Below, one piece after another: positions 3,788 through 43,032 of a stretch of 64,000 bases of DNA. A program made the translations under genes and the position numbers. The notes beneath the pieces are model-generated. The model searched no databases. It saw nothing but the letters and a program-made list of their open reading frames with translations, and was not told the origin of the DNA. This stretch comes from a virus. Taxonomy: Duplodnaviria; Caudoviricetes. The stretch is from IMG/VR virus record IMGVR_UViG_3300021387_000994, positions 32,001 to 96,000 of that record; one strand, 5' to 3'. Every line of letters starts with the position of its first letter. The stretch's first letter is position 1.

Positions 3788-5134
3788 TTATACTAAATGA
3801 CTTAATGTATCTACCATATCACTTCTTTCAAAAAGTTTCATCTTATTATAATTAGCATCGATTTTGAACTTAGTATCACGACCCTCACCCTCACGTATTT
3901 TCAATATCTTCAAATAATAAAACGGAACACAAGTACCATCTTCATCTTCATTTCCAACACCCATTCTCATATCATCTGTCTGTATGATACCGAAACAAGT
4001 ATCAACCGTATGTAGAAGACCCATAGATTCGGCAACATCTTCCATATTGATATCAGAACCATTTAGGGCACTACGACCACACTGTGTGGCGGTAATAATT
4101 GAAAGGTTATACTTTACTGCAATACCCCTCAAATCTTCTGCTATCTGTTTGATTTTGAGATATGTGCTCTCACTATTTGGAAGACGGTAGTTTGACATAA
4201 TGTTGATATAGTCAATGATGACCACATCAACCTTGAACTTCTGTGTTTCCTCTACTTCCTTAATATATCTCTCAACATCCAACACGGTACCTTGTCCGGT
4301 AGGGAACTCTTTGATAAAAAGTTTTCCGAGTGGCATTATCGAACTCATTGAAAGATTATTTAGTTTTTTTCTTACCTTGTTCGAATCTTCCACTATAGAA
4401 TCATAATCTTCCAATGTTATATCAAAAAGGTTTGCACCGATTCTTCTTGTAACCTTTGCTGCCGACATCTCACAAGTAATGTAAAGAACATTTTTTCCTT
4501 TACGGACAAACTCAGCAGCATCATTACAAAGGAACACAGACTTACCGGCATTTGTTGCACCGATATAGCACGTAAGTGTTTTAAGGTCGAGACCACCTTT
4601 AGAAATCTTATTAAAATATTCCCAAGTGTATGGTATCTTATAATCTTTTACTGATTTATGAGAATCAACGTCAAAGAAATTACTACCCAAATCTGTATCG
4701 AAAGAAATCAATGAAGTATCGGCGACCATACCCGTGGCTTTATGAACCACATCGACAACATTGTCAAGTGTAATATCGGTTGTCTTAACGTATGTTACTG
4801 CCTTAACTATATTGACATTCAAAGCTCTCCATTGTATCCACCCCTCAGTAGTACCTTTTAACCACTCGTCGTCGTATGAACCTATCTCAACATCATATAT
4901 AGAACGAATGGTTTCAACCGATATTTTCTTATCGTCATCTTTCAAAAGTGAAATCATCTGCTCACAAGACGGAGATTCTTTATACTCTTTGAAGAAATTT
5001 TTGGAAGTAAGTGCAACATACTGAATATCCTCATTGGTAAAGAAATCACCACCTATCGAAAGAAGATAGTTCGGATGTTTCAACATGTAAGCAAATATGA
5101 CTTTCTCCTGTTGTATGCTCGACTTTAATCCCAT
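3788..5134 (-). CDS. gp41: T4 gp41-like replicative DNA helicase (SF4)
   Basis: GATNAGKS, YITCEMS, IKEFPTG, IIDYINIM, TATQ, AESMGL motifs. Confidence 0.9.
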   Translation of the reverse strand: MGLKSSIQQEKVIFAYMLKHPNYLLSIGGDFFTNEDIQYVALTSKNFFKEYKESPSCEQMISLLKDDDKKISVETIRSIYDVEIGSYDDEWLKGTTEGWIQWRALNVNIVKAVTYVKTTDITLDNVVDVVHKATGMVADTSLISFDTDLGSNFFDVDSHKSVKDYKIPYTWEYFNKISKGGLDLKTLTCYIGATNAGKSVFLCNDAAEFVRKGKNVLYITCEMSAAKVTRRIGANLFDITLEDYDSIVEDSNKVRKKLNNLSMSSIMPLGKLFIKEFPTGQGTVLDVERYIKEVEETQKFKVDVVIIDYINIMSNYRLPNSESTYLKIKQIAEDLRGIAVKYNLSIITATQCGRSALNGSDINMEDVAESMGLLHTVDTCFGIIQTDDMRMGVGNEDEDGTCVPFYYLKILKIREGEGRDTKFKIDANYNKMKLFERSDMVDTLSHLV

Positions 5135-5412
5135 ATCGTTTTCACAATTTTATATGAACTACCACTTTTTTCTATAAACCCTTCACCAAGTAAAGTGTTT
5201 ATTATTTTATCTATTCTATTATTAACCAACTCATCGTCTGTTTCATTGGAGAAATATCTATTTTTAATTTTATCCCTTGAAAACAACTTATCATCCAATG
5301 AAATTGTACATGAGTCATAAAGTACATCCAATGGAGTAGGATAACCGAACAAAGTCTTATTTATTCCAGTTATATATCTTACTTGTATTTTATTTTTGTC
5401 TAATTCTCTCAT
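5125..5412 (-). CDS. hypothetical protein
   Basis: Start placed at MRELDK (5412) because a promoter-motif variant lies at 5419-5431. Confidence 0.6.
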   Translation of the reverse strand: MRELDKNKIQVRYITGINKTLFGYPTPLDVLYDSCTISLDDKLFSRDKIKNRYFSNETDDELVNNRIDKIINTLLGEGFIEKSGSSYKIVKTIWD

Positions 5413-5452
5413 ATAACTAAAATATAACAAAAAAAGGTGGAGATTATCCACC

Positions 5453-5524
5453 TTTTAACAAAATATCAGGTATATACTTGATTTTTTTGTTAAAATCTAT
5501 AATATACCTGATATTTTGTTAAAA
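5453..5524. repeat. 23-bp perfect inverted repeat downstream of uvsX
   Basis: TTTTAACAAAATATCAGGTATAT (5453-5475) pairs with ATATACCTGATATTTTGTTAAAA (5502-5524). Confidence 0.85.
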
Positions 5525-5527
5525 ATG

Positions 5528-6187
5528 TTATTCCTCAATGAGTTGTGTTTTGATTTGGTCATCAATGGTTTCTTCTTCCTCCTCAAACAAATCATCTATT
5601 TTTACACCGTCTGCATACTTGAATTCCTCTTGTATGTATCTGTCGAGTCTTTCAAGTCTTTCCTTGGTAAATGCCTTTGATGTGAAAAGTTCCTTTGGTG
5701 TGATTGTCTCACCGTTGTCAAGACAATAGTTTCTTGAAGTTTCACTTGGAACGAAGTACAAAACCTCACCGTCTTTCTTTTCAACACGGATGTACTCATC
5801 ATTTGGTGACTTATTGTATTCTTTTTCTGTGATAAATTTCCCTTTTTGAATACCACATCTCTCAAATGAGATATATTCCTCAAGACCGACATATGGGTTC
5901 ATACCAGAAACATAGGATATATAAAATTTAACAGTTGTTGGTTTACAGAACCTGTTCTTTTCCGGTTTTGCTGTAACAATGATGCCAGTCTGCAAATTGT
6001 CAGAACCCTCCTTGAGTTTTGCCTTTGTCAAATTAAGTATTATTGATGCACCATACACCATACCAGAATTATGGTTCACAACACCATTTTCTGTTACATA
6101 ATGTTGGACATCTTCAACAGTAAGGTCATAAACATCAGTACAACAGTTTTCTTTTACACTTTTTACTTTTAATGTCTTCAATTGCAT
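5528..6187 (-). CDS. uvsX: UvsX/RecA C-terminal fragment fused to split intein C-part (IntC 6068-6187)
   Basis: 40-aa IntC with VYDLTVE..H.Y..NGVVNHN, then +1 Ser and the RecA-type SGMVYGAS...KNRF. Confidence 0.9.
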   Translation of the reverse strand: MQLKTLKVKSVKENCCTDVYDLTVEDVQHYVTENGVVNHNSGMVYGASIILNLTKAKLKEGSDNLQTGIIVTAKPEKNRFCKPTTVKFYISYVSGMNPYVGLEEYISFERCGIQKGKFITEKEYNKSPNDEYIRVEKKDGEVLYFVPSETSRNYCLDNGETITPKELFTSKAFTKERLERLDRYIQEEFKYADGVKIDDLFEEEEETIDDQIKTQLIEE

Positions 6188-7145
6188 ATTCTATATCTTT
6201 TATTATTTTTTCAATATTGTTGTTTTTAAAATATTTGTCACCGATACGAATTATTCCAATAATATCTTTTCTTTTTGATAGAATAATATTATCTCTTATT
6301 TCATCATATTCAATATCATGCCAAAAATTACCATCATATTCAAACAATATTATATTGTTTTCAAATTCAATATAACCATCGGTAAGGACATATTGTTTTC
6401 CATATTTTGAATATAATTCTGTATTTTGTACATTTATTCCTAAATGCAAATGTTTCAAACCACATAAATGTTTTGAAATTTCATTAAAGAAACACAACTC
6501 CTCTTTGGATTCATAACCTAAATTTTTCTTCCAGTATTTTTCCGGATTTAATCTGTATAATTCTTTTTGTCTTTCTGATTGTTTCTTAATTGCAGATTCA
6601 TACTCATCATCACTTTTATAATTTTCACGACACATTCCGTTTAACTTGTGAACTTGAAATATAGCATCATCCTCTGAAAATCCATTTTCAATCCAATATT
6701 GTTTTGACCACTTACATTTTTTCAGTCTTTCTTTGTATGAATATTTCTTAATCATTTTATCGGAACGTTCTTTTTGTATTTTTTTAATTGTTTCTATATA
6801 TTCCGATTCCGAAACACCCTTATCAATATAATACTCCTTACATAATGGTGACCTTTTTCTCTGTTCAAAACTTATTTTTTCATATATTTCTTCACAATTT
6901 TCCCAACCCATTGATTTCCAATAATCTGTTGACAACACAGATGATGATTTTCCACACCTCAAAGATTTTAGGTATTTGCTAATATCATCAAATTTATTCC
7001 TAATTCTATTTGACTTTGTGTTTAGAAAAACCTCATAGCATTTTTGAACAAGAGATTCATTGTTTTCATTTATGTTTGGAAAACTTTGTTTTAGAAATGA
7101 TTTGAATATTTCAATACAATATATATCCGATACCCTATACTTCAT
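6135..7145 (-). mobile_element. free-standing Vsr-like/PD-(D/E)XK homing endonuclease between the split-intein halves
   Basis: N-terminal repeated Y(W/Y)xxxG motifs; C-terminal ESKEE..DGY..FEYDGNFWH..DEIRD..IIRI; own late promoter at 7165-7172. Confidence 0.8.
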
Positions 7146-7198
7146 TGTTTTTCATATTTTTTATTATTTATGAAAAAAGCAGAGTGGTGGATATGGTA

Positions 7199-8164
7199 TC
7201 ACAATTTCTTTATCTCATTCCCTTCAACCAAATCGGAAGCCTTTATCCATTTTGAATCATCCAATATATCATCAAAATTTTCACCTATAAAGAATCTATG
7301 GTCTTTTGAACAAGTAATTTTACTTCCATCTTCAAACTCTATATCCAATGTGTCTTTTTTAAATCTCCACGTGTTCATAATTTCTTTGTCACCAACAATC
7401 GTCTTCACTTTGTCACCAACACGGATGTCTTCTATATTCTTTAATTCGCCATTTGACATAATAACTTTTGAACCACCAACTAAACATCCTCCAGATTGTA
7501 CGGATGTTGGTATATATGTGTTTGTTGATTCATATACGTGGTTTGACAATGCCATTGTTGCACCGATAATACCCATCTTCATAGAAACAATTCTGAACAA
7601 AGACCTTAATTTCTTTGCTTTTGTCATATCCGCTTTGTCACTCCCTGATTTTGCATCATCAATTTCCTTTTCTGTTGGGAGTCCACCTAATGAATCAAGA
7701 ACAAAAAACACTTTTGGAATTTCCATACCAGATTCTTTCTTTTCAATAAGAAGTTCTATAATCTGTGTAATTGATGTTCTAAATTCCTCAACACTTGTCA
7801 CTGGTTCATATCTGAATTTTTCCGGATTGATACCAAATTGAATTAACATCTTTTTTTCAACAGCATTCTCAGAATCATACCAAATAACAAAATATTCCTT
7901 TTCTATCGCCTCTCTTGCAATATTAAGAAGTAAATATGTTTTTCCAACACCACTAACACCAGACAATGCCGTTATTCTATTATTTGGAATACCACCAAAA
8001 ATACTTCCAGATAAACTTGCATTACAAGCATAATTACCAACTGGAATATAATCAGTAATTTCTGATACTCCAGCATCTTCCGACATCAAACCACCCCATT
8101 TTGAGTTTTTTGACATTTCTTTGTTTAAATCACTAAAACTAAAAATTCCACTTTGTTTAGCCAT
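7199..8164 (-). CDS. uvsX: UvsX/RecA N-terminal fragment fused to split intein N-part (IntN 7202-7486)
   Basis: GGIPNNRITALSGVSGVGKT, YDSENA, LDSLG; intein begins at QSGG|CLVGGSKV, has block B TCSKDH, and ends in a stop after 95 aa. Confidence 0.9.
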   Translation of the reverse strand: MAKQSGIFSFSDLNKEMSKNSKWGGLMSEDAGVSEITDYIPVGNYACNASLSGSIFGGIPNNRITALSGVSGVGKTYLLLNIAREAIEKEYFVIWYDSENAVEKKMLIQFGINPEKFRYEPVTSVEEFRTSITQIIELLIEKKESGMEIPKVFFVLDSLGGLPTEKEIDDAKSGSDKADMTKAKKLRSLFRIVSMKMGIIGATMALSNHVYESTNTYIPTSVQSGGCLVGGSKVIMSNGELKNIEDIRVGDKVKTIVGDKEIMNTWRFKKDTLDIEFEDGSKITCSKDHRFFIGENFDDILDDSKWIKASDLVEGNEIKKL

Positions 8165-8250
8165 ATACTATAAAATTTATTTTGTTGTACTCTAAATATA
8201 ACAAAAAATATGTCAGGTTCCATAAATATTTTAAACACAAAATTTTTGTA

Positions 8251-8823
8251 ATGATTGATGAAAAATTACCAAAGAAAATAACACTCAATGATATTTTAAA
8301 TCGTAAAAGATGGATATTGGAACTTGTCGATAAATTCGGAATGGATATACCCGATGATATAGATGGTCACGATTTCAAGAAAGTTTGGGACAGATGGGTA
8401 GATAAAGGTGGTGAATCCAACTATTACTTTGCAGAAGAATTAAGAAAAGGATTGAACAAATACCTTATAGAAAAAAATAAAGAAGTGAATGAGTGTGGTG
8501 TTCAAGGTGGTGCAACACCGACAAATGTCGGTGGAATGGGCAACATAGTTTTACCTGGTGGTGAACCAGGTAGCGGTTCACCTGGTTCAGGTGACATTCC
8601 TTTACCATCTCCAACAGGAAAAGTGTATACACAAGTTCAACCATTTGACCAATTTATAAAGAAAAATTGGAAAAATAAGAAAATGAAAAAATCAAAAAGA
8701 AAACGTAGATTGGAAAAAAACAGTGATGCAGAACATACACCAAATGATTCTGTATATGATTATGTTGATGATTTTAGAACATATATACAAAGAACACATA
8801 ATGAAATACTATGGGTATATTAA
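8251..8823 (+). CDS. late hypothetical protein with Gly/Pro-rich segment
   Basis: CATAAATA at 8221-8228; VNE site followed by GATPTNVGGMG...GSGD. Confidence 0.65.
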   Translation: MIDEKLPKKITLNDILNRKRWILELVDKFGMDIPDDIDGHDFKKVWDRWVDKGGESNYYFAEELRKGLNKYLIEKNKEVNECGVQGGATPTNVGGMGNIVLPGGEPGSGSPGSGDIPLPSPTGKVYTQVQPFDQFIKKNWKNKKMKKSKRKRRLEKNSDAEHTPNDSVYDYVDDFRTYIQRTHNEILWVY

Positions 8824-8956: not shown

Positions 8957-9021
8957 AGAGTGATTATTAAATCATTCTTTATTTTTTTCATAAATACTAT
9001 AAATATATAAAATATAATAAC

Positions 9022-31713: not shown

Positions 31714-34656
31714 TTAAAACAGCGGAACATCGTGTGACATGCTTATGTCGATTGGTGAATATCCCATAGCTTCTATTATTCTGTTCATTGGACTGAGAAT
31801 AAGCAAGTCGAACATTTTATCATAGTCGATTTCAAAACCACTTGCCATATCCATCGGGTATTGACCAGATGGATAACTAAATGCTTGTATCGGTTCTTGA
31901 ACTTGACAGTCTGTATAATAATCAACACCATTACGTTTTTCAATAATACCACCTTTTATAAATCTAATCTCTTGATGTTTCATTATAGTAGGAATATCAG
32001 AAACTTTTATATCACAACATTTCCAATAAGTATACTTATTACTTGGTTTGATATACAGAACACAGAGTTTATCACTATCCACTAATGTCGTATATTTTTT
32101 CTTATATTTCTCACTATTATTGAGAAGCCAATTATAAAATGCTGCTCCTTGAACTGTAACCATCGCCTTACCAAATAGTTCAACTTCATTTGTATCATTA
32201 AGAACATAGTCTGAATATTTATTCATACCTTTATTAACCGACACAGTTTCATAATTTTGTAACATAAAATTTTTCTTAACTTCTTTCATCTGTTTAACAA
32301 AACCCTCGATTGTGAATTTCTCTTGTTTGAATATCCACTTAATCAAATCCGTCATCTGCTTCTTGACCCAAGTCGAACTAGATGTCTGTGCAATCTCAAT
32401 ACCGGTCGGTTTGATTTTAGTGCAAGAATCATAGTAAACATTTGGCTCAGCCCAAGTGGTATTCTTCACATACTTTTTCTTAGCGAGCCAGATACCAGCC
32501 TCATTGTATGCCTCCAACTCGAAGTCGAGAATATTAGGTGTTCCCTGCTTGGCAGCATAGTCCTCGTGTATCTTCTTCAAGAAGTCCTTCATAAACACAC
32601 GGTCAAGAGTAAGACAGAACTCACGACCTGCTGGTTCTATTTTATCAATCTCAAAATCATACTTTTCTTTATCGATTGAATCGACATCAAAATATTGTCT
32701 TGCATCATCTTCAGTCGGATAACCACCCGAAGACACATACACGAATTCTTTCTGGTCATTCGACTTGTTAATCTTGGTGAGTCTCCACACGTCGTGCAAC
32801 ATCCAATCAGTTGAATTTACAATCTCATAAAATGAACAGTATACGCTATCCGTATCTATGTATCTACTTATAGGTGAGATAGTTACATTTTTATCTGGGA
32901 TACAAACACCCATTTTTTTATGTGTTTTTTCATCAATAAGCCAACCTTTTTGTGCCCATAGATTCATAAGTCTCTCGGCGTTCAAGATGGCGTGCTTACC
33001 TTGTTTTGTAACAGATTCAGCAATATTCTTGTTATAGAAGTAGAAACCGGAGAATCCGAAAGCACCATAGATACCGTTAATTACAACCTTTGTACCAAGT
33101 TGATAGTTATTGTAGATGTCTGCTTGTGTGGTACAGAAAGTAAGAACATCATCCATCTGTTTACCAATCAAATCACCAAGGTCGTTCTTTTTCATATAGT
33201 CTTCTATCTCTTCTTGACTTGCACCATTGTGCATAAGGTCTTTCAAGTCATAGTAGCACTGTGTGTATTTGAACGATGTCTTCTTGTATGCCTTTCTTTT
33301 GAAGTAAAGGTCTGTGATAATTTTTTTCAAATTACCATCCTCTTTTTCATATACTGCACCAGAAGCACATACAATATAACCCTTATCTCTCCACTGTTGT
33401 TTCAGTTCCTCATCATCTTCGGGAAGCATCTTGACAAGTGTTTCCGGACCGATATTGAACTGTCTCATCAAAGACGGATAAAGTGAGGCGTAGTCGTTAC
33501 ATGTGCAATACTTGTGAAGACCTGGAACAGGCTGCTTGACGAATGCCCCCTCATATTTCTCACCATCACCTTTCTTCTTTGGCTTTGAAGAAACTGCAAG
33601 GACACGACCTTGTTCAGCAAACTTCTGTCTTAAAAGATTTTCAGGAATATATGTAGTAGAGAAACAATCCATTGCACGGATATGACCCAACCATGCAGTG
33701 GTGATACCACAAGTCAATGCATTACATTTTTCGTGGATGAGTTTTACGAGACCACAGTCGATAGCATTATAATACACATACTTCTGAAAGTTGTTGTTGA
33801 ACATATCATCGAGACTCTCACTGTGCTGTACTTTTTTGATACCACAGAGTTTCTCACCGATATAGTCGAGTTTGTAATTCTCATTGGAGTTCCAAGTCCA
33901 TTTCTTGTATGCTTTCAAATAGTCGATAAGACCGACGTGACATGGACGCTCAAACTGACCAGTCATTTTATGAGTAGGTGACGAAATGTTTATGTTTATT
34001 TCAAGTTTTTTCGCCCTGTTTATGATATACCTCCAGTCATATTCCTCAAAGTTCCAACCGGTCATCATGGCCATATTCGGAACAAGTTTGTTCAAGAAGA
34101 AATACAACATGTCATATTCCGTATTGAAACAACGGAAAGCAAACTTGAACTTACGGTTTACTTGTGCAAAATGGTCGTCGATTTGCTTTTGAATATCCTC
34201 GATTTGTTTTCTATTTAAGTTCTTTCCACCAGAAAGAACCATAATAGTATCATTTGGGCAACACACACCAATGACAGTTATCGGCTTATCCGCCTTTTCT
34301 GGGTCAGGTTTTCCCTCTTGCATCAAGTTCTCAATATCTATGAAAAACATTTCAGGAAGATTGTATGAGAATATCCTTTCCTTTACATCTTCCGGAAGAT
34401 TGTCAACAATCTCATACATCCTATATCTATTCAAGACATGTTTTGGATTTGTGAGATTCAACTTATGTTTCCATACTTTGTCTTTGTTCCAGTTCTTGAC
34501 TGTTCCACCAGGTTCATCTTTTTTGTCGATGGGTTCTGTGAGCCAAGTGTACCAATCCTTTTCTTGAATTGGAATCACATCGATGTGTGTCTTGTGGTCA
34601 TCTCCCCAATAGGAAATTTCCAAGTTTGTTCCGTTTTGTACTAAATCTAATAACAT
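31714..34656 (-). CDS. gp43: family B DNA polymerase (gp43-like)
   Basis: Exonuclease FIDIE, GWNFEEYD, YNAID; polymerase DYASLYPS, KVVINGIYG, YIDTDS, KKKY. Confidence 0.95.
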   Translation of the reverse strand: MLLDLVQNGTNLEISYWGDDHKTHIDVIPIQEKDWYTWLTEPIDKKDEPGGTVKNWNKDKVWKHKLNLTNPKHVLNRYRMYEIVDNLPEDVKERIFSYNLPEMFFIDIENLMQEGKPDPEKADKPITVIGVCCPNDTIMVLSGGKNLNRKQIEDIQKQIDDHFAQVNRKFKFAFRCFNTEYDMLYFFLNKLVPNMAMMTGWNFEEYDWRYIINRAKKLEININISSPTHKMTGQFERPCHVGLIDYLKAYKKWTWNSNENYKLDYIGEKLCGIKKVQHSESLDDMFNNNFQKYVYYNAIDCGLVKLIHEKCNALTCGITTAWLGHIRAMDCFSTTYIPENLLRQKFAEQGRVLAVSSKPKKKGDGEKYEGAFVKQPVPGLHKYCTCNDYASLYPSLMRQFNIGPETLVKMLPEDDEELKQQWRDKGYIVCASGAVYEKEDGNLKKIITDLYFKRKAYKKTSFKYTQCYYDLKDLMHNGASQEEIEDYMKKNDLGDLIGKQMDDVLTFCTTQADIYNNYQLGTKVVINGIYGAFGFSGFYFYNKNIAESVTKQGKHAILNAERLMNLWAQKGWLIDEKTHKKMGVCIPDKNVTISPISRYIDTDSVYCSFYEIVNSTDWMLHDVWRLTKINKSNDQKEFVYVSSGGYPTEDDARQYFDVDSIDKEKYDFEIDKIEPAGREFCLTLDRVFMKDFLKKIHEDYAAKQGTPNILDFELEAYNEAGIWLAKKKYVKNTTWAEPNVYYDSCTKIKPTGIEIAQTSSSTWVKKQMTDLIKWIFKQEKFTIEGFVKQMKEVKKNFMLQNYETVSVNKGMNKYSDYVLNDTNEVELFGKAMVTVQGAAFYNWLLNNSEKYKKKYTTLVDSDKLCVLYIKPSNKYTYWKCCDIKVSDIPTIMKHQEIRFIKGGIIEKRNGVDYYTDCQVQEPIQAFSYPSGQYPMDMASGFEIDYDKMFDLLILSPMNRIIEAMGYSPIDISMSHDVPLF

Positions 34657-42973: not shown

Positions 42974-43032
42974 ATTACCTTTTCTTATTATAGTCATCCA
43001 TAAATATACTATATAATCAATTATAGAATTTT

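Follow-up and report, generated by a model that had tools for sequence, protein, structure and literature searches.

The subject of this report is a fractured recombinase gene, uvsX, in a 64,000-nucleotide (nt) stretch of phage DNA (hereafter the window) that spans positions 32,001 to 96,000 of IMG/VR virus record IMGVR_UViG_3300021387_000994. The record is 133,579 bp long, with a CheckV completeness estimate of 39%, and the phage is a huge uncultured one of about 340 kb. Three minus-strand open reading frames (ORFs) make up the locus at 5528-8164. A preliminary description, made from the sequence alone, had reported an N-terminal UvsX half that continues into a 95-amino-acid (aa) N-terminal intein fragment (IntN) at QSGG/C (a slash marks a splice junction throughout), a 336-aa endonuclease, a 40-aa C-terminal intein fragment (IntC) that passes into the C-terminal UvsX half at HN/S, and a 53-nt overlap of the last two genes. 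All of these, coordinates included, agree exactly with the ORF list. In window coordinates the features are:

7199-8164, minus strand: ORF1, UvsX-N plus IntN, 321 aa (226 aa + 95 aa), ending ...EIKKL before a TGA stop at 7199-7201
7487-8164, minus strand: UvsX N-extein, 226 aa, with Walker A motif GVSGVGKT, ending ...VQSGG
7199-7486, minus strand: IntN, 95 aa, with Cys1 and block B S60-x-x-H63; the range includes the TGA stop
7123-7194, minus strand: spacer hairpin enclosing the endonuclease start codon, a single-sequence fold with z -2.1
7165-7172, minus strand: promoter-like motif CATAAATA, 19 nt before the endonuclease ATG
6135-7145, minus strand: ORF2, free-standing endonuclease, 336 aa, with its own ATG and in a frame other than that of ORF1 and ORF3
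6135-6187, minus strand: dual-coding overlap of the endonuclease C-terminal tail and the IntC N-terminus, 53 nt
5528-6187, minus strand: ORF3, IntC plus UvsX-C, 219 aa (40 aa + 179 aa), starting MQLKTLKVKS...
6068-6187, minus strand: IntC, 40 aa, with block F D21 and H29 and block G H39-N40
5528-6067, minus strand: UvsX C-extein, 179 aa from Ser+1 (SGMVYGAS...); the range includes the stop codon

The upstream junction reads ...VQSGG/CLVGGSK..., with the cysteine as residue 227 of ORF1, and the downstream junction reads ...NGVVNHN/SGMVYG... after the 40 IntC residues of ORF3. ORF1 and ORF3 share one frame, and in that frame the gap between them contains dozens of TAA, TAG and TGA stops. The record as a whole (33% G+C) is fully coding under translation table 11, with ORF coverage of about 100% and TAA, TAG and TGA all in use, which indicates the standard code.

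Both outer genes belong to the UvsX family. ORF1 matches PHROG 97 (UvsX-like recombinase) with an E value of 6.5e-45 over profile positions 17-271, and ORF3 matches PHROG 18112 ('recombinase'; E 3.5e-20). The latter match begins at profile position 1, which means that sequenced phages already include a family of IntC-UvsX-C proteins. In alignment, the N-extein runs parallel to the uninterrupted UvsX of both LR756500 and LR756504 as far as the GG junction. When the intein is removed, the protein has a Walker A core and is collinear over its full length with uninterrupted UvsX (LR756500, LR756504 and the metagenomic protein P0028); the C-extein is 81% identical to the P0028 allele. No second uvsX was found in the 133.6-kb record.

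The segments between the exteins and the outer ends of the gap carry the features of an intein. Pfam Hint, Hom_end_hint and Intein_splicing match ORF1 residues 221-313, and positions 122-155 of the 155 in the Intein_splicing profile match ORF3 residues 7-40, with scores under the curated cut-offs at both junctions, as expected for half-domains. The comparison with the gp41-1 intein that the preliminary description had proposed proved apt, as the closest PDB entry to IntN is gp41-1 itself (6QAZ; E 6e-6, about 38% identity over 52 residues). In that alignment ITCSKDHRF lies over IICSEEHLF, which places block B S60-K-D-H63 over S-E-E-H. IntC alone gave a marginal PI-PfuI row in the PDB (E 0.63). 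All residues of class 1 splicing are present, namely Cys1, S60xxH63, block F D21/H29 (VYD21LTV..H29Y), H39-N40 and Ser+1, and these hallmarks (C1, S60xxH63, D21/H29, H39-N40/S+1) are kept in all 6 distinct split alleles as well as in the Lak megaphages. Residue +1 is Ser or Thr in every split allele and Lys in the empty alleles, and the IntC start M-LK-LKVK is retained in all loci. The HINT fold could be seen on a homologue: the model of the contiguous intein of P0061 superimposes on gp41-1 with a template-modelling score of 0.87 and a root-mean-square deviation of 2.2 A. The sequence comparisons thus support IntN and IntC as the two halves of a class 1 split intein whose nearest known relative is gp41-1.

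Searches of Pfam, PHROG and the PDB (the last by phmmer and by profile) with the endonuclease sequence gave no match, and Foldseek on the whole model returned at best weak rows of the PD-(D/E)xK-type nuclease fold. The AlphaFold (AF2) model, built on 15 homologues with a mean predicted local distance difference test score of 88.8, has an all-helical region (residues 1 to ~207) followed by an alpha/beta domain (~211-336) that resembles Vsr-like/EDxHD nucleases. With VIA-align, E. coli Vsr (1CW0) ranks first (Z 9.2, 104 residues aligned, 2.5 A), and the catalytic domain of the homing endonuclease I-Bth0305I (3R3P) is fifth among 48,161 chains (Z 8.0, 93 of 98 residues), in keeping with the Vsr-like assignment first made by eye; the family link comes from VIA-align alone, a protein atlas having given a lead. 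Conserved among the homologues are E216, D256, E269, D271, the FWH of 274-276, and D285, within a block FEYDG..FWH....D..RD. Counted from H276, the distances to E269 (7 residues), D271 (5) and D285 (9) are identical to those in I-Bth0305I and Vsr. The matched positions, in the order I-Bth0305I/Vsr, are N208/H64 for D271, H213/H69 for H276 and D222/D97 for D285, with E269 at the Vsr-F62 site; D256 and E216 lie where D196 and E170 are expected (PMC3239194). This equivalence is one of motif spacing rather than of residue-level superposition. Taken with the model, it places the ORF2 product in the EDxHD (Vsr-like) family, with all catalytic residues in place.

The helical N-terminal region contains three repeats of the type YW..G(F/Y)SE..A and matches no Pfam NUMOD model. 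A profile search gathered 798 representative clusters, many of which share these repeats alone, and 2 of 10 sampled repeat-bearing proteins carry a C-terminal DUF559. The repeats, for which Pfam has no model (6531-7145 on the minus strand, endonuclease residues 1 to ~205), thus turn up, frequently as 2-4 stretches, in several hundred clusters that are otherwise unrelated, and a modular DNA-binding unit is a plausible interpretation. At the other end of the protein, the tail ...IKSKKCKRKLLY is nearly invariant in homologues that are 45-50% identical overall, the pattern typical of a stretch that also codes for the beginning of IntC. A separate observation concerns P0007, the cluster representative in the nearest relative (96% identical to the window endonuclease), in which a Tyr replaces the putative metal-binding Asp256; by its sequence, this copy may be decaying.

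The split layout recurs well beyond the window. A search of IMG/VR with the endonuclease profile found 7 loci on contigs of up to 388 kb, and all 7 share the three-gene arrangement, with an endonuclease/IntC overlap of 53-59 nt across the IMG/VR loci (L007-L012 included) and Lak. At most of these loci a small ORF and then a gp41-type helicase follow, which is the T4 order uvsX-40-41. No near-identical DNA was found in the phage collection. A search with IntN only matched 50 phage records, 15 of them Lak, and roughly 20-25 T4-like records in uvsX, a count estimated from the matches listed and including RefSeq duplicates. By these sequence comparisons the split uvsX allele is widespread in metagenomic contigs of huge phages and in Lak phages rather than unique to the window.

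Measured against L007, the closest locus, the ratio of nonsynonymous to synonymous substitution rates (dN/dS) comes to 0.105 in the N-extein, 0.114 in IntN, 0.063 in IntC and 0.179 in the endonuclease, values that are approximate because synonymous sites are near saturation in this comparison. Together with the conservation of the endonuclease tail, they indicate that all three genes are under purifying selection and are maintained.

Two observations from the same searches concern inteins in other genes. In L008 (4883-5581) and L010 (4898-5596) the gp41-like helicase ORF ends 36 residues after Walker A, in a tail that starts GK/CVC... and resembles a very short IntN; the N-terminal half of the helicase alone is detectable in the whole 192-kb record. 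These helicases may be fractured genes with an atypical split, judging from the sequence. The helicase ORF of the window (3788-5134) is uninterrupted. Each Lak-B genome (e.g. MK250024) contains a second locus that matches the window IntN, which points to a related intein in another gene of those megaphages.

The insertion site itself exists in four states among related phages: empty, occupied by a contiguous mini-intein, split around an EDxHD endonuclease, and split around a NUMOD3 endonuclease. Uninterrupted alleles include LR756500, the nearest UvsX among GenBank phages (52% identical), and LR756504, and the empty-site metagenomic proteins P0028, P0030 and P0033 read ...SGG/KGLIYGAS... and are up to 81% identical to the C-extein. 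In P0061, P0076 and P0100 a contiguous mini-intein occupies the site of the window's split intein and aligns end to end with IntN and IntC, with ~5 linking residues. Taken together, these states agree with the invasion model of Dassa et al. (2009; PMC2677866), in which a free-standing endonuclease gene inserts into the loop of a cis mini-intein and breaks it. P0061, P0076 and P0100 are noteworthy in another respect, as they are UvsX C-terminal fragments that open with an IntC belonging to another, distinct split intein; in this type a 12-residue extein segment separates this second intein from the contiguous mini-intein, and both lie in the L2 region.

Fractured genes were described by Dassa et al. 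(2009; PMC2677866) for gp41, NrdA, NrdJ, IMPDH, DnaE, DNA ligase, terminase and one protein of unknown function; UvsX figures in that work as a neighbour gene and is not among the eight host types. The preliminary description had recognized this arrangement in the window, and the likeness holds in detail: host halves fused to intein halves, a one-strand three-gene layout in a phage DNA-metabolism gene, the canonical split point with IntN and IntC lengths of roughly 90 and 40 aa, and a free-standing endonuclease (theirs Vsr-like or GIY-YIG). In 15 of their 26 loci the 3' end of the endonuclease gene runs 6-69 bp into the IntC ORF, compared with 53 nt here, and a hairpin and a late-promoter-like element upstream of the endonuclease were also reported (PMC2677866). 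The window differs in its host, UvsX, in the GG/S junction, in carrying CATAAATA rather than TATAAATA, and in the modest identity of its IntN to gp41-1. The evidence supports a genuine fractured uvsX, a further case of the arrangement that Dassa et al. (2009) reported, in a host gene beyond those of their paper.

Homologous splits also occur in cultured phages. In T4-like phages such as Salmonella phage SEA1 (OQ927978), Proteus phage Pm5461 (KP890823), Escherichia phage HY03, Yersinia phage TG1 and others, uvsX is split at the same site (..SGG/C ... HN/T) by a homologous intein whose IntN is about 40% identical to that of the window, and the same three-gene layout precedes genes 40 and 41, the order found in T4. 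Their endonuclease, in contrast, bears NUMOD3, has about 240-260 aa and is unrelated to that of the window, and the GenBank records annotate the pieces as recombination proteins or recombinase pieces alone. The Lak megaphages of Prevotella (MK250020-28) have the same layout, seen in B5 when read with TAG as Gln, together with a 56-nt overlap and a strong upstream hairpin. The Lak-B5 endonuclease is homologous to that of the window (29% identity, E 6e-22) and is longer (463 aa); Lak differs further in its TAG = Gln code, its AMG/C junction and its unannotated records.

Among endonucleases, the instructive comparison is with I-Bth0305I, the prototype EDxHD homing endonuclease, which is encoded in a group I intron of recA in Bacillus phage 0305phi8-36 (PMC3239194; PDB 3R3P). 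The window enzyme resembles it in nuclease fold (Z 8.0), catalytic spacing, an N-terminal DNA-binding region (putative here) with a C-terminal nuclease, and a location around the L2 loop of a RecA-family gene. HMMER, however, detected no sequence similarity between the two. I-Bth0305I rides a self-splicing RNA intron rather than a split intein, and its site of insertion and cleavage is at the FGDP codons within L2, several residues upstream of the window's GG/S. The L2 region, which in P0061-type proteins holds even two inteins, thus looks like a hot spot. The mycobacterial RecA inteins (Mtu RecA and Mle RecA) likewise occupy RecA-family hosts and have the HINT fold (structure-search ranks 21-34), but they are contiguous, and cellular rather than phage-borne. 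They carry a nested LAGLIDADG-type endonuclease domain. According to PMC3239194, the Mle RecA intein is inserted in the L2 loop. A recent study of huge gut phages observes that introns, inteins and endonucleases often cause fragmentation, with UvsX unmentioned (PMC12880540), and full-text literature searches, whose coverage excludes subscription journals, found no description of a UvsX split intein, T4-like alleles included.

The spacer upstream of the endonuclease carries two candidate expression signals. The window has 21 copies of CATAAATA where 6.4 would be expected (0 of 100 shuffles reach 21), and 20 of the 21 copies stand 4-47 nt upstream of the ATG of a same-strand ORF, mostly at a distance of 19-27 nt. 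In addition to the copy at 7165-7172, examples are:

8221-8228, plus strand: CATAAATA copy
8989-8996, plus strand: CATAAATA copy
43000-43006, plus strand: CATAAATA copy

The motif resembles the T4 late promoter, with C for T at position 1, and one copy precedes a baseplate wedge gene. The T4 late consensus TATAAATA itself is not enriched in the window (10 against 7.7 expected), and scans for sigma-70 promoters and terminators stayed at background level. The second signal is the hairpin (7123-7194), which has the start codon enclosed in its 3' arm and also contains the CATAAATA copy at 7165-7172. The equivalent stems of L008, L009, L010 and Lak are long and near perfect (z -5.1, -7.1, -3.4 and -5.9, respectively), end in AUG and have an ATAAATA-type motif in the loop. 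The hairpin evidence consists of single-sequence folds; a MAFFT alignment of the five spacers was out of register, and its pair counts were not used. On read-through transcripts the hairpin would conceal the start codon, whereas transcripts from the internal promoter would be without the 5' arm, a logic that also applies to T4 endonuclease genes. In this way the hairpin and CATAAATA may together control translation of the endonuclease.

We consider it very likely that the locus is, as a whole, a fractured uvsX with a split intein and a homing endonuclease, from which UvsX is rebuilt by protein trans-splicing. Splicing, cleavage specificity and expression timing we infer as follows. An ancestral cis-splicing mini-intein would have resided in UvsX at GG/S, on the C-terminal border of its L2 DNA-binding loop, and a free-standing EDxHD (Vsr-like) endonuclease gene would have invaded it at the canonical endonuclease-insertion loop. 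The invading gene would have brought the stop of the upstream half, the start of the downstream half, its own promoter-like motif and the hairpin; its having supplied the downstream start would explain the 53-nt overlap. Two polypeptides, UvsX-N-IntN and IntC-UvsX-C, would then be made, and the intein halves would associate as a HINT fold and undergo class 1 trans-splicing by an acyl shift at Cys1, attack by Ser+1 and cyclisation of Asn40. The predicted product, a recombinase of 405 aa, reads ...SGG-SGMVYG... across the junction (predicted junction peptide ...SGG-SGMVYGASIILNLTK; predicted DNA of the joined extein junction ...TCTGGAGGA/TCTGGTATG...). In co-infecting relatives with an intein-free uvsX, the endonuclease most likely cuts this gene near the GG/(K or T)G junction, and repair after the cut would copy the whole cassette of intein and endonuclease. 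Its translation is probably blocked by the hairpin on read-through transcripts and freed on transcripts from its own CATAAATA.

Several points weigh against this account. The split is known here from sequence alone. The record represents ~39% of the genome, and an intact second recombinase could lie elsewhere. The hairpin of the window is marginally better than shuffles (z -2.1), and the case for CATAAATA as a late promoter consists of the analogy to T4 TATAAATA and a single baseplate gene downstream of a copy. Finally, IntN and IntC have net charges of -4 and -2 and are weakly complementary, unlike some fast split inteins. This last point favours a different account, in which the intein fragments join the halves without splicing and UvsX acts as two chains held together non-covalently, the mode of assembly proposed for the NrdA fragments of phage Aeh1; non-covalent assembly from a fractured phage gene thus has a precedent (PMC3045599). 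Against it, the residues needed only for splicing (Cys1, the block B His, the terminal His-Asn and Ser/Thr+1) are kept across alleles whose endonucleases are 35-67% divergent, and the Lys at +1 in intein-free alleles is the pattern expected if splicing constrains that position. We therefore regard purely non-covalent assembly as improbable.

It is also very improbable that uvsX was broken and rendered non-functional by the invasion, or that the endonuclease is a decaying remnant. Although the Tyr in place of Asp256 in P0007 hints at endonuclease decay in the lineage, the dN/dS values of ~0.1 for exteins and intein halves and 0.18 for the endonuclease, the absence of internal stops, the retention of the layout in distant phages and the complete set of catalytic residues in the window endonuclease all speak for maintenance. 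Scarcely credible, finally, is an artefactual split, whether through an assembly or sequencing error, stop reassignment, a frameshifted contiguous intein with a nested endonuclease, or an RNA intron. Lak relatives do recode TAG, but translation tables 4, 15 and 25 fail to rescue the frame here and are unneeded given full coding density under table 11, and stops of all three kinds between the halves, together with the standard code, exclude recoding, an isolated sequencing error and a contiguous intein with a frameshift. The endonuclease starts at an ATG of its own in a different frame, and it is of the EDxHD type rather than a nested LAGLIDADG or HNH enzyme. The preliminary description had named an erroneous stop at 7199-7201 and RNA splicing as ways in which the split might prove illusory; the many stops in the gap and the recurrence of the layout in 7 independent contigs argue against the former, and Rfam (E<=1 over 5000-8700) returned no group I or II intron model, its rows being chance microRNA and small RNA matches alone. 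The window contains no tRNAs.

For specialists the locus is real, well supported and useful, yet unsurprising, with homologous alleles already present, unremarked, in GenBank. Nonetheless, UvsX joins the essential DNA-metabolism genes predicted to depend on protein trans-splicing, and the gp41-1-like Cys1/Ser+1 split-intein family offers many natural alleles to screen as ligation tools. The four site states make the endonuclease-invasion origin of split inteins directly testable in tractable laboratory phages, and annotators gain a concrete reason against calling such uvsX fragments pseudogenes.

It is tempting to speculate further that the fracture has been co-opted for regulation and that GG/S at the L2 edge is a shared landing pad, a joint proposal that we consider unlikely. 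Under co-option, the cassette would supply a late-type CATAAATA promoter 1 kb upstream of IntC-UvsX-C; UvsX-N-IntN has no CATAAATA motif, and the two halves would be made on different schedules, with trans-splicing serving as a timer or AND-gate for full-length recombinase. Under the landing-pad proposal, one intein lineage would have been invaded independently by two unrelated endonuclease families. If this were true, the surviving empty, cis-intein and split states would form a natural series for each step toward a fractured gene.

Two minor features lie outside the three genes. At 5432-5456 on the minus strand, 3' of the uvsX-C stop, a terminator-like 10-bp stem with a T-run overlaps the start of a 108-aa ORF at the position of T4 gene 40. 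Elsewhere in the phage record, beyond the window, a second Intein_splicing-like match (118155-118373 of the record, minus strand; E 9e-6, profile positions 10-81) sits within a 1138-aa open frame and is probably a contiguous intein in another gene.

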